A stretch of 64,000 nt of DNA from a virus. This document shows, in pieces, positions 1-61,280 of this stretch. The notes beneath the pieces were generated by a model. It saw nothing but the letters and a program-made list of their open reading frames with translations. It did not search any database and had not been told where the DNA came from. The stretch is taken from the IMG/VR virus record IMGVR_UViG_2563366553_000007; one strand, 5' to 3'. The translations under genes were made by a program, and so were the position numbers. Numbering within the stretch: position 1 is the first letter of the stretch; every line of letters starts with the position of its first letter.

Positions 1-145
1 ATTCTTGCAGTGTCATTTATTGCTCCTTTTGCTCCCATTCTCCCTAAAGTAATTATCTTTGATACTCTATCATTTCCATATTTCTCTCTAACATAATTAA
101 TTACTTCTTCTCTTCTTTCGTCTCCAATATATGACGATAGGTAAT
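1..145 (-). CDS. dnaE: DNA polymerase III alpha subunit (DnaE), exon 2, partial (continues past the window start)
   Basis: The reverse complement of 1-145 translates without stops to [49 protein letters not shown]. This matches the conserved DnaE segment following the PDxDxDF motif (E. coli: PDFDVDFCMEKRDQVIEHV...[21 protein letters not shown]). The exact exon start is +/- a few nt. Confidence 0.6.
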
Positions 146-948
146 CCTTTGAAATTATCTTCAGATTTTCCCCCGTCCCACACCGTGCGTGAGACTTTCA
201 CCTCACACGGCGTTCCCTCGTTTGAATTGTAGATATATTATGTGACTAAGTTGAATTTTATTAGTCTTACGAAAACCTGAACTATCGTAAATTTTTAAAT
301 ATAATATTTAATCTACTCAAACGACTTGAGCCTATCCCTCCATCACTTATTATCATGACTTCTTTGGTACTGTGGCTCTACTCTCACCTTGATTAATTAA
401 GGTTATAGATAGTTAATCTATCATTTCCCTTAAAACACTTCTTTGACAGTTATATCTCCATGTTCAAGGCTTTCCACGTTCCAATACTCCTATCTTTACC
501 GTATATCCTTAGGTGCTACCTAAATACCGTCATCAATCCAATTCCCTGTAAGAATTGTAGGATTTTCTTAACACAGCCCTTACTCATCCTTCTGATGATA
601 AACCAAATTTGCTTCTCTTAGCATTTCTACTAAGCTACATTCACGATAAGTCAGTCAGTAGTTCGTCCCCATTGCACATTTTGGATACTCACCATAGATA
701 TACTTCATAGACATCCGACATATCAATTACAGCTAATTAAACCTTTCCTCGACTTAACTCGTTAGGGTAATTTTTCTGCCGACTTCAACGAGCTTTACAC
801 AACTTCATAATAACTTAATCCATTGCATATCGTAATTTTAATGGCAATTCTTCAAAGCGTTACCTTATCATTTAATTGCTCAGAGTATTAGTTCTCCTAA
901 GTTTTTGTAACTTAGTGGGCAATCTTTTCAATTACCAACGTGTCACAC
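146..948 (-). mobile_element. ORF-less group II intron (about 800 nt) interrupting dnaE
   Basis: On the minus strand the segment begins GUGUG (948->944), the group II 5' consensus GUGYG. A domain V-like hairpin AACGCCGUGUGAGGUGAAAGUCUCACGCACGGUG lies at 214->181: a 34-nt stem with 2-nt bulge, a GAAA loop and a CGC catalytic-triad variant, about 35 nt before the inferred 3' splice site. Joining the flanks restores the DnaE motif PDIDV|[15 protein letters not shown]. There is no ORF of 60 aa or more on either strand inside. Boundaries are approximate. Confidence 0.6.
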
Positions 949-2380
949 CTACATCTATGTCAGGCATACTAATTCTATCTGGGTTTAAGAATCTTTCAAA
1001 TAACAAGTCATAACGAATAGGATCCATTTCTGTTATTTTCAATACATATGCAACAAGTGAGCCCACACAACTTCCTCTACCTGGTCCTATAGGAATATTA
1101 TTTTTTTTAGCAAAATTAATAAAATCCCAAACAATTAAGAAATAGTCTGGATAACCCATTTTACATATTGTTTTTACTTCAAATTCCAATCTTTCTTTAT
1201 ATTCAACTGATTCATATTTAGAACTTCCATAAAACCTTTCTTTAAAGCCTTCCTCGCAAAGTTTTTTAAAATACTCTTCATTATTTAAATTTTTTTCGTC
1301 CTCTCTTGGGAATACAGGTAATATATTATGTCCAAAATCAAAATGTAAATCACATTTATCCATAATCTCTAATGTATTAAATAAAACTTCAGGTATATCT
1401 TTATATTTTTCTTCCATATCCCCACAAGTATGTACATAATATCCATCACCTGAGAATTTAAATCTTTTAGGATTATCCATAGTTGTCTTAGTCTGGTTAC
1501 ATAAATGTGTCTCATGGACTAAAGAATCTTCTTTTTTCAAATAGTGAGCATCATCTGTGGCAACTACTTTTATATCAAGTTTCTTGGCTAATAACATTAA
1601 CTGTTTATTTATTTTATCTTCATCTTTAATATTATGTCTTTGAATTTCAATATAAAAATCATCTTTAAAAATTCCCTTTAATTTTAAAGCTATTTGTTTT
1701 GCTAATTTATTGTTGCCATCTGCTATAGCTCTTGGTATTTCTCCAGCTATACATCCAGATAAAACTATAACACCTTTGTTGTATTTTTCTAACCAACTGT
1801 ATTTTATCTGAGGACTTTTATAGAAATTATTATAGGCCATAGAACATAACTTAGATATATTTTTATAGCCAACCTCATCTTTAGCTAATAGAACTAAATG
1901 ATTTTTATTCATACTTCCATCTATACTCTCAGAATATGCCTCAAACCCAATTATAGGCTTTTTATTTTTAGATACCATTTGCTTATAAAAATTAATCGCA
2001 CCATACATTACACCATGATCTGTAATTGAACATGAATATTCTGTTTCTTTTGCTAAATCTCCTATTCTTACAATTGAATCAAGAAGAGAATACTCTGTGT
2101 GTCCATGCAACCTAATGCAAGTTATAACTTTTAATTTTTCATCAACAAACTCTCCTATAAAATTATTCCTATAATCAAATATATTATTTTTTATAAAAGT
2201 ATCCTTAACAAACTTTTCTTTTTTTAAAACAAATAGGACCTCTTTACCATTTAGTAAAGATACCTCTATCTTTCCATCATTTTCAATTAAACTTAAATAA
2301 TTTGAACTACTATTATTTTTTCCCTCCTTTAATTCACTTTGAATTTTCTCACATTGTTTTTTGCTAAGATTAACATACAT
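949..2380 (-). CDS. dnaE: DNA polymerase III alpha subunit (DnaE), exon 1, N-terminal PHP domain
   Basis: The track ORF 932..2380 contains PHP motifs [26 protein letters not shown] and GFEAYS, and ends ...MPDIDV. The last 17 nt of the track ORF (VGVTRW*) are intron read-through. An N-terminal extension of about 85 aa precedes the PHP domain. Confidence 0.75.
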
Positions 2381-6266: not shown

Positions 6267-7640
6267 TTATATATTTTTATATTTTTTAAGTTGTCTTAAT
6301 ATTATTTGTTCATACAATTCTTTTTTTGCTTCTTTTGGATATTTTTTTTCATCTGGCCCAAATAATGATATTAATATTTCTATATACTTATTATAATAAG
6401 TATTCATCTCATCAAATGAAATTTTATCAACCATATCTTTTTTCCCATTATCAATTAAATCATCGATACCTTTCCCAAAATCACTGTCCCAAAGGACATA
6501 GAATATTTTTTTATTTTCTATTTTTTGTAAAGCTTCTCCTAACTTCAAAGCTTGTTTGTAAACAGCAAGATTATATCCCATGTCTGCATCAAAGGCGACA
6601 TAAATATAAGGTAATTCTACCTCACTATATAATTTTTGAATATTCTTAATTACTTCTATAATATTACCCCAAGCACAAACGCCTTGAATTGATATTGCTA
6701 TGCTATTATACTCTTTTGCTATTTTCTTAGCCTTAAAATGGCCCTCAGTAATAAAAATAGTTTTTACCTTCAATTCCTCTGGATAAATAACATCTACAGA
6801 TACACCAGCAGATGTACCAAATTTATACCCTTCATTCTCTTGAGCAAAAGCAGATGAAAACCAAATATATCTACTCTCGTGGCTATTTACCACATTTTTT
6901 CTTATTTGTATTCCAATAATTTGTTTAAATTCATTTCTAATTGGAATTGCGATGCCTCCTCTTTTTATAGTAGTAAAGTCATATCGATTATTTTTCTTAT
7001 TATAAAAAAAACCTGGTATATTATTTAATGTACTTAATTTAATGTTATTTTTTTCTAAGTCAGTTAAGAAAGGTTTTAATATATATCTATTTGGGAAAGA
7101 AAAATAACCTGTATCTTCGATTTCTTTATCTGTCAGCCCTCTTTTATTTTTAAGATGTTTTATATCTTCTTCATTTAATCTATTTTTACCTAAATAATCA
7201 AAACCTTTTATAAACAAAGAATAGATTTTATTTAATGTTTCATTATCAGCTTTTTTACTTTGATGTTCAATAAGGTTTTGTTTTATGTAAGTTTTTTCAA
7301 TTTTTAAATTCTCTGATTCTGAAAGTTTTTTTGATAATATTTGCTTATATTTTTCTTCTGAGATTAACCTCTTTTCAAGTGCTATTTTAAATGCACTCTC
7401 AACATAAGTTATATTTTCAAATAAGGAAACAAATTTAATAATATCTCCTCCAGTACCACAACTAAAACATTTAAATATTTTCTTATTTTTAGAAACAGAA
7501 AAGGAACCAATTCTTTTATCATTGTGAAAAGGACATAAGCCTTTTCCATTTTTCAAATCCATTCTTGATTCAATTTCATCTATACCAACAACTTCTCTAA
7601 CTAATTCAATAATCTCTTTTATAAAATCTTTCCTTTTCAT
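6267..7640 (-). CDS. dnaG: DNA primase (DnaG-like: CHC2 zinc finger + TOPRIM)
   Basis: The zinc-finger region is CPFHNDKRIGSFSVSKNKKIFKCFSCGTGGD. TOPRIM motifs are IFITEGHFKAKK and YVAFDADMGYN. Confidence 0.8.
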   Translation of the reverse strand: MKRKDFIKEIIELVREVVGIDEIESRMDLKNGKGLCPFHNDKRIGSFSVSKNKKIFKCFSCGTGGDIIKFVSLFENITYVESAFKIALEKRLISEEKYKQILSKKLSESENLKIEKTYIKQNLIEHQSKKADNETLNKIYSLFIKGFDYLGKNRLNEEDIKHLKNKRGLTDKEIEDTGYFSFPNRYILKPFLTDLEKNNIKLSTLNNIPGFFYNKKNNRYDFTTIKRGGIAIPIRNEFKQIIGIQIRKNVVNSHESRYIWFSSAFAQENEGYKFGTSAGVSVDVIYPEELKVKTIFITEGHFKAKKIAKEYNSIAISIQGVCAWGNIIEVIKNIQKLYSEVELPYIYVAFDADMGYNLAVYKQALKLGEALQKIENKKIFYVLWDSDFGKGIDDLIDNGKKDMVDKISFDEMNTYYNKYIEILISLFGPDEKKYPKEAKKELYEQIILRQLKKYKNI

Positions 7641-7740
7641 AAACTATTTTCCCTTCCAGATTTTTATATTGAATATTTTTACATATTTATACCACTTAGT
7701 ATATATTTTGTTTTATTTTTTAGCAATATATATTGACTAT

Positions 7741-7778
7741 AAAAAACAAAAAACAAACAATTTAAATTGTTTGTTTTT
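7741..7778 (-). terminator. Rho-independent terminator after ssb
   Basis: The hairpin AAACAAACAATTTAAATTGTTTGTTT is followed by a T-run on the minus strand. Confidence 0.6.
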
Positions 7779-7790
7779 GTTTTGCTAATC

Positions 7791-8315
7791 TTAGAATGGT
7801 ATATCATCATCATCTATTTCTTCAAAATTTGCTTCTATTACTTCATTTTTCTTATTGAAATTCTCTTCTACATGTCTATTACTTTCTTCTGCATTTTTCT
7901 TTTTAACTACACTTTTAAAATTTGATATTGTAATAACTAATTTTTTAAATGGAGTACCATCCTTTTTTGTACTTTCCTCTACTTTTAATTTACCCATAAC
8001 TCCCAACAACATATTTTCACTTGGATTAAATTTTTGCAATCTTTCTGCTACTACATCCCAAGCTGTAACTTTAATAAAGTGTTGTTCTTTATCAAAATCT
8101 TCACCAAAATAAAATTTAGCAACTGATTGTGGTATTTTTGTACTTAATTCCATATTTGCAACAAGTTTGTCTCCATTCTTTGTTGATACTTTTCGAAATT
8201 CTACAAAGTTCTCTTTATCTTTATATTTACAAGTCCACCCTTCTATGTATGCTACTAAAGTTTCTCCTACTTTTTCAAATCCACAGAAATTAAAATTATA
8301 TTTTTTTTCGCTCAT
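7791..8315 (-). CDS. ssb: Single-stranded DNA-binding protein
   Basis: It has an OB-fold N-terminus and an acidic C-terminal tail ending DDDIPF, the canonical SSB client-interaction tip. Confidence 0.85.
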   Translation of the reverse strand: MSEKKYNFNFCGFEKVGETLVAYIEGWTCKYKDKENFVEFRKVSTKNGDKLVANMELSTKIPQSVAKFYFGEDFDKEQHFIKVTAWDVVAERLQKFNPSENMLLGVMGKLKVEESTKKDGTPFKKLVITISNFKSVVKKKNAEESNRHVEENFNKKNEVIEANFEEIDDDDIPF

Positions 8316-8520
8316 ATTAATACCTTCTTTCTTATATTTTTTTTAAAAACCATTTTTAGTATTATTTTTCATTATAGATTCTAAAAAAAAATATATTCCT
8401 AAAACATATAGATATTTATTCATTTTTTTATTATATAATTTACAACTAAGTTCTATAATGTATTAAACTATATAAGGTCTTTAAGCAACAATTCCTATTT
8501 AAAACTTTTGGAGGTGTTTA

Positions 8521-9585
8521 ATGGATAATTTCAAATATCTATTTGAAAAAAATAAGCAAAAAATATTATTAACAATTAGTCTCCTATTCTTATTTATAAT
8601 ATGTATTACAATTTTTTTATTCATCAAAAAAAATAATTTTAATGAGAATATGACAGATGTTCAATATGAAGATGTCGGAATAAAAAAAGCTGAATATATT
8701 TTAACAGGTACTTGTAATGGGAAAATAGATTTGATTAAAACTTCAAATCAAAAAGTCGTTGATAGTCTACAATTAAACAATTTAGGCAATACAATGTATT
8801 CAAGAGATCCAAATTTAAAAAAATTAATGGTTTATAACAATAGTAACTTTTATAGTATTGAAGAGAAAAAAGGTAAAATCATTAAAAATAATGTTTATAA
8901 GCTAAAAGATAATATTCAAATTTTAAACTTTAACTTTTCTGATAATTATATAGTTTTTAATTCTAATGGAGCTTATAAATCTATCTCTTTAAAAGAAAAT
9001 AAAGAAAATTATATTAATGAAAGAGAATTTGATAATTATGTAGTTTCTAAAGATAATCTGATATACTCTAAAGATAATTTAATAACTTCTTTAAATTTAA
9101 AAACAAATAAAGTTAATAAAACTATAAATCTTGGAGATAAGACTAAGGCTATATCCCTTACTAAAAATGGTCTTACTATTTTTAACAATTTTGGATATGA
9201 TAATAATAGATCAATTATATTGGGAGTAAACCCAGAAACATTATATATAAATAGCGTCTATAAACTTGATAGTAATAAGGTATTACCAGTAACACAATAT
9301 AGTAGAGACTTAGAAGTTTATTTTATGGATAAGGTAGAAAAAGATTCTGCTTTAATAGAATCGCATTATGCTGTTAAAGTAGATAATAAAACAACTAAAA
9401 CAACTTTAAGTAATACAAATAAAGACTCAGACAAGACCCCAAATACATATAATACAGTTAGTGCTAAAGGATATCTTTATTCAAATGAAGATTTAAAAGA
9501 ATTAAAAATATTTGAATTGAGAAGTAACACTTTAGTAGCTACAATAAATACAGATAAAATCTTTTTTATGCCTATACTAAAATAA
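8521..9585 (+). CDS. Hypothetical membrane-anchored protein
   Basis: There is a good RBS (GGAGGTG) 8 nt upstream and an N-terminal TM helix. It is Asn/Lys-rich, has an internal short duplication (SKDNLIYSKDNLITS) and no recognisable catalytic motif. Confidence 0.5.
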   Translation: MDNFKYLFEKNKQKILLTISLLFLFIICITIFLFIKKNNFNENMTDVQYEDVGIKKAEYILTGTCNGKIDLIKTSNQKVVDSLQLNNLGNTMYSRDPNLKKLMVYNNSNFYSIEEKKGKIIKNNVYKLKDNIQILNFNFSDNYIVFNSNGAYKSISLKENKENYINEREFDNYVVSKDNLIYSKDNLITSLNLKTNKVNKTINLGDKTKAISLTKNGLTIFNNFGYDNNRSIILGVNPETLYINSVYKLDSNKVLPVTQYSRDLEVYFMDKVEKDSALIESHYAVKVDNKTTKTTLSNTNKDSDKTPNTYNTVSAKGYLYSNEDLKELKIFELRSNTLVATINTDKIFFMPILK

Positions 9586-60826: not shown

Positions 60827-61280
60827 ACAAAGAAGATTATATTAAAAGGAGCATTATAATGTTCTTTTTCCCTTATGCTTTTGAATACTAAATAAATTTA
60901 ATATATATAATGAAGTAAACATAGATGTAATATTTAAATATATTTTAAATTAGGATAAGGGAGGATGTCTAAGTCAATAACCCACCTCTAAAGAGGTAGG
61001 CTTGAAGTTATCTCCAAGTCGTATTGACCAGATTCAGTTTTAAACTACATTATTAAGGTTACAACACCTACAAATGCTTCTCCAGTTTATGGGTACAAAC
61101 AGTGTAATATGATATTAATCCTTAATAATTTTATCAAGGATTGCAATTTGTTAATCATAGATATTTAAAACTAATACAAAAAGGTGATGGTTACAGATAT
61201 GAGTTAAAGACTCTTGCCTAACAGAAAGAGGGGTAAATTCCTCACACTACTGAAGTAGCGTGTCCCCTTTTGCATTTTTT

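Follow-up and report, generated by a model that had tools for sequence, protein, structure and literature searches.

The gene for the DNA polymerase III alpha subunit (Pol III alpha; dnaE) at the start of the virus record IMGVR_UViG_2563366553_000007 is interrupted at its catalytic motif by a group II intron that carries no open reading frame (ORF) for an intron-encoded protein (IEP). The whole 64,000-nucleotide stretch that was analysed is referred to as the window, and the intron occupies positions 131-948 of its minus strand; that this segment is a group II intron, as a matter of identity alone, is practically certain, and that it is functional and spliced is very likely. Positions 1-2600 of the window were 100% identical to positions 236868-239467 of NC_017177.1, a plasmid of Clostridioides difficile BI1, whose circular record of 300,869 bp has the window as its final 64 kb; the element is called the BI1 intron in what follows. 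It is an unannotated, new case of a known, rare kind of element. The initial annotation of this DNA, made from the sequence alone, had described group II introns in essential replication genes as uncommon, which does not hold for this dnaE site, where an intron is not rare in Clostridia.

Identity, boundaries and structure of the intron

When the window was scanned with Rfam at the gathering thresholds, two families matched on the same strand, in the right order and each over the full length of its model. RF02004 (group-II-D1D4-5) was matched at 896-704 (-) over model positions 1-201, with 139.6 bits (gathering score 34.5) and an E-value of 1.2e-30, and RF00029 (Intron_gpII, domains V and VI) at 215-131 (-), with 63.1 bits (gathering score 40) and an E-value of 4.8e-10, both E-values referring to the 64-kb window. 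The match is far beyond chance, and it falls on the strand and at the place where the initial annotation had expected group II domains. The GUGUG start and the domain V hairpin (two-nucleotide bulge, GAAA loop and CGC triad) that it had described were indeed located, at window 948-944 and 211-182, respectively. The intron is richer in G+C than exon 1 (36% vs 27%).

The ends of the intron were set by intron-less alleles and by the intron of the Clostridium perfringens plasmid pJFP838A. The 5' end is at G948, from which the sequence read downward begins GUGUGACACG, and relatives have GUGCG or GUGUG in the same column; the 3' end is at window 131 (...CCUAUCGUCAU, ending in CAU), as given by the Rfam alignment of domains V and VI. 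Joining position 949 to 130 yields ...CCT GAC ATA GAT GTA G^AT ATT GGA GAC GAA... (carets mark exon junctions and insertion points), i.e., a predicted ligated-exon junction of ...GACATAGATGTAG^ATATTGGAGACG as DNA and ...GAUGUAG^AUAUUGG as RNA, so that the intron interrupts the codon of Asp478 in phase 1, directly after the catalytic PDxD aspartates. The 3' splice site had previously been placed near 146, giving a join of PDIDV-DYLSS; this is 15 nt too early and lies within domain VI, and the distance from domain V to the 3' splice site is 51 nt rather than the approximately 35 nt proposed. The upstream reading frame does break where it had been said to break: the minus-strand ORF 932..2380 (482 amino acids) stops six codons past PDID. 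The frame also resumes downstream on the same strand with a conserved DnaE block, as had been read from its translation; it is free of stops, leaves the window at its start and continues to record position 234581.

Intron-less alleles were found to have exactly the register predicted for the ligated exons. Plasmid pESW1602 of Clostridioides sp., whose DnaE is 85-90% identical, reads CCT GAT ATA GAT GTG GAT ATT GGA GAT (PDIDVDIGD) at this place, and the C. difficile contig protein P0002 (90% identical) is likewise contiguous across the junction, both as removal of 131-948 predicts. Excision of this segment results in one ORF of 1282 codons, the product of which is predicted to be a 1282-amino acid Pol III alpha with the PHP, PDxD palm, finger, HhH and OB regions in order (in Pfam: PHP 91-249, DNA_pol3_alpha 369-635, finger, HHH_6 919-1006 and OB 1121-1190). 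The palm is divided by the intron, its first half being encoded by exon 1 along with the PHP domain, and the join restores a single uninterrupted match to PF07733 (369-635). The spliced region aligned without gaps to residues 323-475 of Escherichia coli Pol III alpha (SMPDFDVDFCMEKRDQV), and the spliced DnaE matched the E. coli Pol III alpha structures with an E-value of 1e-51.

In RefSeq, the dnaE locus is represented by two coding sequences (CDSs), and the intron is unannotated. The first CDS, 'DNA polymerase III subunit alpha' (WP_009898964.1, 482 amino acids), extends 17 nt into the intron, to window 932 (-), and ends in the tail ...GVTRW followed by the stop; the second, 'OB-fold nucleic acid binding domain-containing protein' (WP_235706325.1, 816 amino acids), starts at a Met codon at window 164 (-), inside intron domain VI. 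These two CDS ends, at 164 and 932, are artefacts of the unrecognised intron.

A consensus structure was derived by RNAalifold from an alignment of twelve family members, which is dominated by introns of the same dnaE position ('site 1'), BI1 included. Judged against this consensus, the ribozyme appears structurally intact: BI1 has canonical pairs at 133 of the 134 consensus positions of domains I to III (D1-D3) and at 29 of the 30 of domains V and VI (DV-DVI), a level equal to that of the IEP-carrying relatives. Compensatory double changes were observed in 78 of the 134 D1-D3 pairs across the family, and the domain VI stem also covaries. In pairwise comparison with the pJFP838A intron, 23 pairs were changed, 20 of them still paired, with 9 double changes; with the intron of locus L015, a full-length relative at the same site, the corresponding numbers were 35, 29 and 20. 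Even domain V of BI1 differs from that of other family members by a compensatory change, with G-C in place of A-U. The catalytic triad is CGC in all family members and AGC in the Rfam consensus, and the tetraloop-receptor halves UAUGG/CCUAAG are found at 692-696 and 508-513. The minimum free energy fold of the intron alone was weakly informative (z = -2.1). The coordinates are collected in Table 1.

Table 1 Positions of the dnaE exons, the intron and its parts in the window
Feature	Position	Strand	Description
dnaE exon 1	949..2380	-	Codons 1-477 and first base of codon 478; ends ...SMPDIDV + G
ORF-less group II intron	131..948	-	818 nt; RF02004 and RF00029 matches; ends set by intron-less alleles and pJFP838A intron
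Intron 5' end, GUGUG (GUGYG consensus)	944..948	-	From sequence; GUGCG or GUGUG in relatives, same column
Domain I core	704..896	-	Rfam group-II-D1D4-5
Putative exon-binding site 2 (EBS2), AUGU	637..640	-	Inferred pairing with exon ACAU at -12..-9
Putative exon-binding site 1 (EBS1), CUGUGUU	570..576	-	22-nt loop of hairpin 560-589; pairs with last 7 exon bases, GAUGUAG
Domain IV	219..323	-	Stem CGUUUGAG/UUCAAACG around ~90-nt remnant; relatives have IEP gene there
Domain V	182..211	-	GCCGUGUGAGGU-GAAA-GUCUCACGCACGGU; 2-nt bulge, GAAA loop, CGC triad (RF00029 alignment)
Domain VI	133..177	-	Bulged branch-point A at 138, 8 nt from 3' end (RF00029 alignment)
dnaE exon 2, start	1..130	-	AT ATT GGA GAC GAA... 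= (D)IGDERREEV...

Exon recognition appears to be present but weak in BI1, with EBS1 and EBS2 both putative. The pairing of EBS1 with its intron-binding site (IBS1) in the exon comprises 7 contiguous pairs, 4 of which are G-U. In relatives at three other sites, the homologous loop holds a perfect EBS1 for their own exons, namely CUUCCA/UGGAAG, UGACUU/AAGUCA and UUUUACUA/UGGUAAAA, the last being the EBS1 and exon end of two Clostridium plasmid introns, on pCLK and pRSJ10_1, that are taken up below. Among the site-1 introns, the EBS1 pairing is leaky at a variable codon, with partial covariation; for example, L015 has G-C and A-U where BI1 has U-A and U-G. The candidate EBS2-IBS2 pairing has 4 bp in BI1 and 5 bp in L014 (another site-1 locus), L015 and pJFP838A (AUGUC/GAYAU), and in the same column the relatives at other sites are complementary to their own exons (AUGGG/CCCAU, GUUCU/AGAAC and GGCGCC/GGUGCU). 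For EBS3/IBS3, the U/U/A/G pattern expected across the four exon contexts was found in no alignment column. Another stretch, intron positions 247-256 (UAUAUCUAUG), has a 10-bp complementarity to exon positions -2..-11; it was rejected as an EBS because it is the conserved UAUGG half of the tetraloop-receptor, present in all relatives whatever their exon.

Loss of the ORF and spread of the intron

The initial annotation had held that the intron encodes no maturase or reverse transcriptase (RT), and this was borne out: its sense strand contains no ORF above 35 codons, and tblastn revealed no RT similarity. With no RT-maturase ORF in its domain IV, the BI1 element represents an ORF-less derivative and not the retroelement form. 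When the exon-1 protein was searched against public proteins, the homologues P0003, P0016 and P0091 were seen to end in the same read-through tail, ...PDIDVG(A/V)TRW. The contig of P0016 (L015) has at the same codon an intron of 2863 nt with a 614-amino acid ORF, which matches RVT_1 and, weakly and just above threshold, HNH; the contig of P0091 (L014) has a 900-nt ORF-less intron that is 94% identical to BI1 in D1-D3. A search of species-representative genomes for the junction pattern ATGCCNGAYATHGAYNNNG^GTGYGACNCGTT found it in ten, including Tissierella, Intestinibacter, Clostridium spp. and Ca. Scybalomonas, and each of the five pattern-found loci that reach the 3' end has an intron of 2.7-2.8 kb with a full IEP of 611-617 amino acids. 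The site-1 introns with an RVT_1 ORF of this size are those of L015, L020, L021, L025, L026 and L027. The same pattern had no match in IMG/VR, and the phage collection contained no near match, only distant ones of DV/DVI size.

Domain IV of the BI1 intron (~105 nt) retains 25 nt, at 88% identity by blastn, from the region upstream of the L015 IEP ORF, the homologous segment in BI1 being a 21-nt stretch at 261-281 (-); in pJFP838A, the same domain IV stem closes a 7-nt loop, i.e., a minimal hairpin. Since the same site holds IEP-bearing introns and domain IV of BI1 keeps this pre-ORF segment, the BI1 intron is an ORF-deleted descendant of a mobile family that homes to this dnaE position. The full form of the family encodes an RT-maturase of ~612 amino acids with a weak match to the HNH endonuclease domain. 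With regard to class, the nearest plasmid homologues of the IEP family are in the Bacillus cereus group (47-50% identity), in which class B predominates (PMC2504315), and the PDB IEPs of the ML, CL and C classes were all equally distant. The presence of EBS2, a D1-D3 region of ~620 nt and the weak HNH match of L015 argue against class C, and the intron is probably a IIB-like RNA of bacterial class B.

Plasmid pJFP838A carries an ORF-less intron at the same dnaE site (L003 5257-5993, 737 nt), which is 89% identical to that of BI1, whereas the two DnaE proteins are only 44% identical and the flanking exons ~60-73% identical in nucleotide sequence. The difference between 89% and 44% indicates that the intron arrived far more recently than the divergence of the genes. 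An identity gradient around the junction was looked for in this pair and none was seen, i.e., the transfer appears to have left no detectable exon co-conversion. A megablast match of 83% that seemingly included exon 1 was found to be merely the average of the 89%-identical intron and the ~70%-identical exon. Within C. difficile, the identical exon-1/intron allele occurs on at least 24 contigs from several assemblies, and in plasmid variants with 17 differences in the upstream gene, the intron differs at a single position; GCA_018757555.1 and GCA_019426845.1 are examples of plasmid-bearing isolates. ORF-less copies occupy the same site in two further replicons (pJFP838A and L014) and have been kept on three unrelated replicon families.

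Splicing and its rival explanations

In its workings, the BI1 intron would be like any IIB-type group II intron. It would be transcribed together with dnaE and fold into the ribozyme, EBS1 and EBS2 would hold the end of exon 1, and the bulged A of domain VI (window 138) would attack the 5' splice site at G948; ligation of the exons would then produce the mRNA for the 1282-amino acid Pol III alpha. What could assist these steps is limited by the gene content of the plasmid. Rfam scans of its remaining 237 kb revealed no further group II domains, a tblastn search of the entire plasmid with the pESW1602 IEP produced nothing better than E = 0.64, and the annotation, seen for ~294 of the 300.9 kb, includes no RT. 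On a plasmid without a maturase, splicing must be unaided, host-assisted or performed with a chromosomal maturase, the same choices as had been drawn from the missing ORF in the initial annotation.

We favour splicing that is independent of a maturase, or helped by general host factors, and consider it close to an even chance. The preference over a chromosomal maturase acting in trans derives from the lack of an IEP on the plasmid, the lack of a C. difficile-labelled IEP relative, the occurrence of such plasmids in several sequence types and the retention of ORF-less copies. There is also a precedent of maturase-free splicing in class B, the intron C.te.I1 of Clostridium tetani (PMC3919590, PMC4424553). 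The trans-maturase alternative is nested in the same explanation, as the intron is the same and the helper alone differs, namely the RT/maturase of a related full-length group II intron in the C. difficile chromosome; we regard it as a serious possibility, if a less probable one. It agrees with the rule that applies to most ORF-less introns of bacteria (PMC4424553; PMC12584367; PMC2504315 for B.c.I7) and has a parallel in the dnaN introns of Trichodesmium; moreover, mobile elements with group II introns are known from C. difficile strains (PMC4430133, PMC3158075). BI1 and L014 also keep the domain IVa-like segment homologous to the region upstream of the L015 IEP ORF. Set against these points, the plasmid has no IEP anywhere, and among the best 120 database relatives of the site-1 IEP (at least 49% identity), none is labelled C. 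difficile. Plasmids like pCDBI1 are found in different sequence types (PMC6807378), so that the helper would have to be present in every one of these, and the pJFP838A copy has had its domain IV trimmed to the minimal hairpin.

Several considerations count against maturase-free splicing, or against splicing altogether. At physiological Mg2+, group II introns as a rule depend on their IEP. The exon pairings of BI1 are weak, both the G-U-rich EBS1-IBS1 (7 bp, 4 G-U) and the 4-bp EBS2-IBS2; the domain IVa-like segment of BI1 and L014 could still bind a maturase; and the case for splicing itself is drawn from sequence. According to reviews, an ORF-less intron in a bacterium is nearly always accompanied by a related IEP elsewhere in that genome (PMC4424553), C.te.I1 being the known exception, and this favours the trans-maturase variant. 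Another rival explanation is a dead insertion, in which no splicing occurs, dnaE has recently become a pseudogene and replication of the plasmid is left to host polymerases. The missing maturase, the abundance of G-U in EBS1/IBS1, an EBS2 shortened by a C-to-A change relative to the relatives, and the two separate CDSs of RefSeq would all fit such a view. We nonetheless consider it unlikely, as the 1282 codons of the two exons contain neither stops nor frameshifts, and the helices, no less intact than those of IEP-bearing copies, show compensatory changes, one of them in domain V. The allele has likewise persisted with one intron single-nucleotide polymorphism across diverged plasmid variants, and ORF-less copies are retained at the same site in two other replicons.

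A genuinely split polymerase, in which polypeptides of 482 and ~800 amino acids are translated apart and assemble without RNA splicing, would match the annotation of the record, and related loci in which dnaE is also called as two genes, around endonuclease ORFs, could be cited in its favour. However, the break falls one residue past the catalytic PDxD and interrupts what is a single continuous domain in Pfam, the second CDS has its annotated start within intron domain VI, and the intervening RNA is a complete ribozyme that would have no other reason to be conserved; such an arrangement is highly improbable. A more far-reaching form of maturase-free splicing, which we consider speculative and rather improbable, is that the intron serves as a gate on plasmid replication, while ORF-less members of the family are still moving between replicons. 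The output of plasmid Pol III alpha would then hinge on unaided splicing that depends on conditions such as Mg2+, temperature and growth state, and the movement would occur by reverse splicing or through an RT borrowed in trans. The family does have an 89%-identical copy in the 44%-identical dnaE of another genus, as well as cousins that interrupt Walker A of a helicase on a C. botulinum plasmid. If true, the family would be a specialised parasite or regulator of catalytic motifs in the replication genes of megaplasmids.

Related insertions, genomic context and known systems

The dnaE genes of this megaplasmid/phage-like family are interrupted at several conserved motifs. Introns of the present family were located at three dnaE sites, PDIDV^D, GPM(E/D)^E and YQEQV^I. 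In pESW1602 (L002 7491-10356), an intron of the same Rfam family, with a 633-amino acid IEP, lies at GPME^EIPNY, and in the C. difficile contig PRXH01000005.1 (L016 8354-11120), one lies at YQEQV^INIV, with an IEP frameshifted into frames of 228 and 397 amino acids. BI1 is empty at the GPME and YQEQV sites, and both relatives are empty at the BI1 site; thus, three close relatives of one plasmid have an intron at three different dnaE sites, each being empty at those of the others. Beyond dnaE, ORF-less group II introns of 822 and 847 nt (RF02004, 172-175 bits) were found in C. botulinum pCLK (L010 3538-4359) and in pRSJ10_1 (L011 3538-4384), respectively. Their insertion point is the Walker A motif (GAGK^T) of an SF2 helicase encoded by botulinum neurotoxin (BoNT)-type plasmids of C. 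botulinum and C. sporogenes, and the helicase gene is annotated as two CDSs.

Interruptions of other kinds were also encountered in dnaE. Many metagenomic DnaE homologues stop right after SMPD (P0045: ~1000 contigs) or GPGRGSACG. The inserts at these points (L028 5854-7125, L029 5929-7369 and L030 5851-7172) are ~1.3-1.4 kb long and have LAGLIDADG-like or HTH_7/HNH ORFs; a sub-threshold group I match (RF00028, 38 bits, E 2e-6) was obtained for L028 alone of the three. These inserts probably represent group I introns or insertions of free-standing homing endonucleases. Exon 2 of the L014 dnaE (6458-9265) contains an intein-like segment with weak or faint Pfam matches to Intein_splicing and Hint_2, and the L015 dnaE has a second group II intron further downstream (8802-9403). 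Splits of dnaE on Brevibacillus and Jeotgalibacillus plasmids were considered as a related site and dismissed, as they interrupt the gene at other positions; the Jeotgalibacillus gene contains a group I intron (L013 3853-4216; RF00028, 63 bits), and the Brevibacillus gene an insert with a 271-amino acid ORF and no Rfam match (L012 3772-5181).

On the BI1 plasmid, dnaE is on the minus strand within a replication module, and its neighbours include genes for a DnaG-like primase, an AAA ATPase, a VWA protein, a YabA-like protein, an exonuclease and ParM. Elsewhere on the plasmid, outside the window, there are a type I-B CRISPR-Cas set, a CBASS-like pair (a DncV-like nucleotidyltransferase and a SAVED protein), two tRNA genes, two RAGATH-18 RNAs, nrdJ, nrdG, ligA, clpX and dozens of DUF4116 paralogues. 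At window 60973-61149 (+), flanked by a gene for a 1069-amino acid hypothetical protein and DUF4116 genes, there is a match to HEARO (the IscB omega-RNA) with 85.2 bits vs a gathering score of 83, and no adjoining IscB ORF; two much stronger HEARO copies lie beside truncated iscB genes at ~151.4-152.1 kb and ~185.0-185.8 kb of the record.

These findings have practical and biological implications. The annotation error of a truncated dnaE plus an 'OB-fold protein' is repeated in pJFP838A and, for the helicase, in the toxin plasmids of C. botulinum. The 300-kb plasmid, which has no maturase, carries a single polymerase gene, and the BI1 intron interrupts the catalytic motif of that gene, so that replication of the plasmid, or at least the use of its own replicase, would hinge on RNA splicing. 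The intron offers a tractable second test case, after C.te.I1, for maturase-independent splicing in vivo. Within a single gene, the family also presents a natural series for the loss of the IEP, from an intact through a frameshifted IEP to an ORF remnant and a minimal hairpin, and the near-identical plasmids with introns at three dnaE sites provide material for studies of intron turnover.

The closest known counterparts differ from the BI1 intron in instructive ways. The full-length introns of dnaE site 1 share with it the insertion point (GAY NNN G^AY...), the RNA family, the EBS1 and EBS2 columns and the DV/DVI sequences, the nearest being 80-94% identical to BI1 in D1-D3; unlike BI1, which has ~90 nt in domain IV, they have an RT-maturase ORF of 611-617 amino acids there and are 2.7-2.9 kb long. 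The dnaN introns of Trichodesmium (PMC12584367) are also ORF-less, lie in an essential Pol III subunit gene, derive from an IEP-encoding intron and make the expression of a replication protein dependent on splicing. They differ in having a helper intron in the same genome, with trans-action of its maturase shown experimentally, whereas the BI1 replicon has no helper; moreover, there are four introns in Trichodesmium, as opposed to a single one of a different RNA class on a Firmicute plasmid.

ORF-less copies of B.c.I7, B.th.I2 and B.c.I10 on plasmids of the B. cereus group (PMC2504315, PMC1196294) are similar in being plasmid-borne, ORF-deleted Firmicute introns, in which short ORF remnants alone remain. 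As differences, E33L has a full-length copy in the same genome, the host genes are others, and none of these copies is reported from the catalytic motif of a Pol III alpha. C.te.I1 of C. tetani (PMC3919590) is likewise a clostridial ORF-less intron of the Firmicute IIB-like lineage with no IEP in cis, and its robust self-splicing (PMC3919590) makes maturase-free splicing plausible for the lineage. Both introns have a large EBS1 loop (24 nt in C.te.I1 vs 22 nt in BI1), which in BI1 would not be a derived feature, since it is common to the IEP-bearing relatives. C.te.I1 resides in a surface-layer gene, has lost EBS2, has a shifted 5' splice site and undergoes hydrolytic and alternative splicing, whereas BI1 has a candidate EBS2, a bulged branch-point A and a canonical 5' splice site, the position of which was set by the empty-site alleles.

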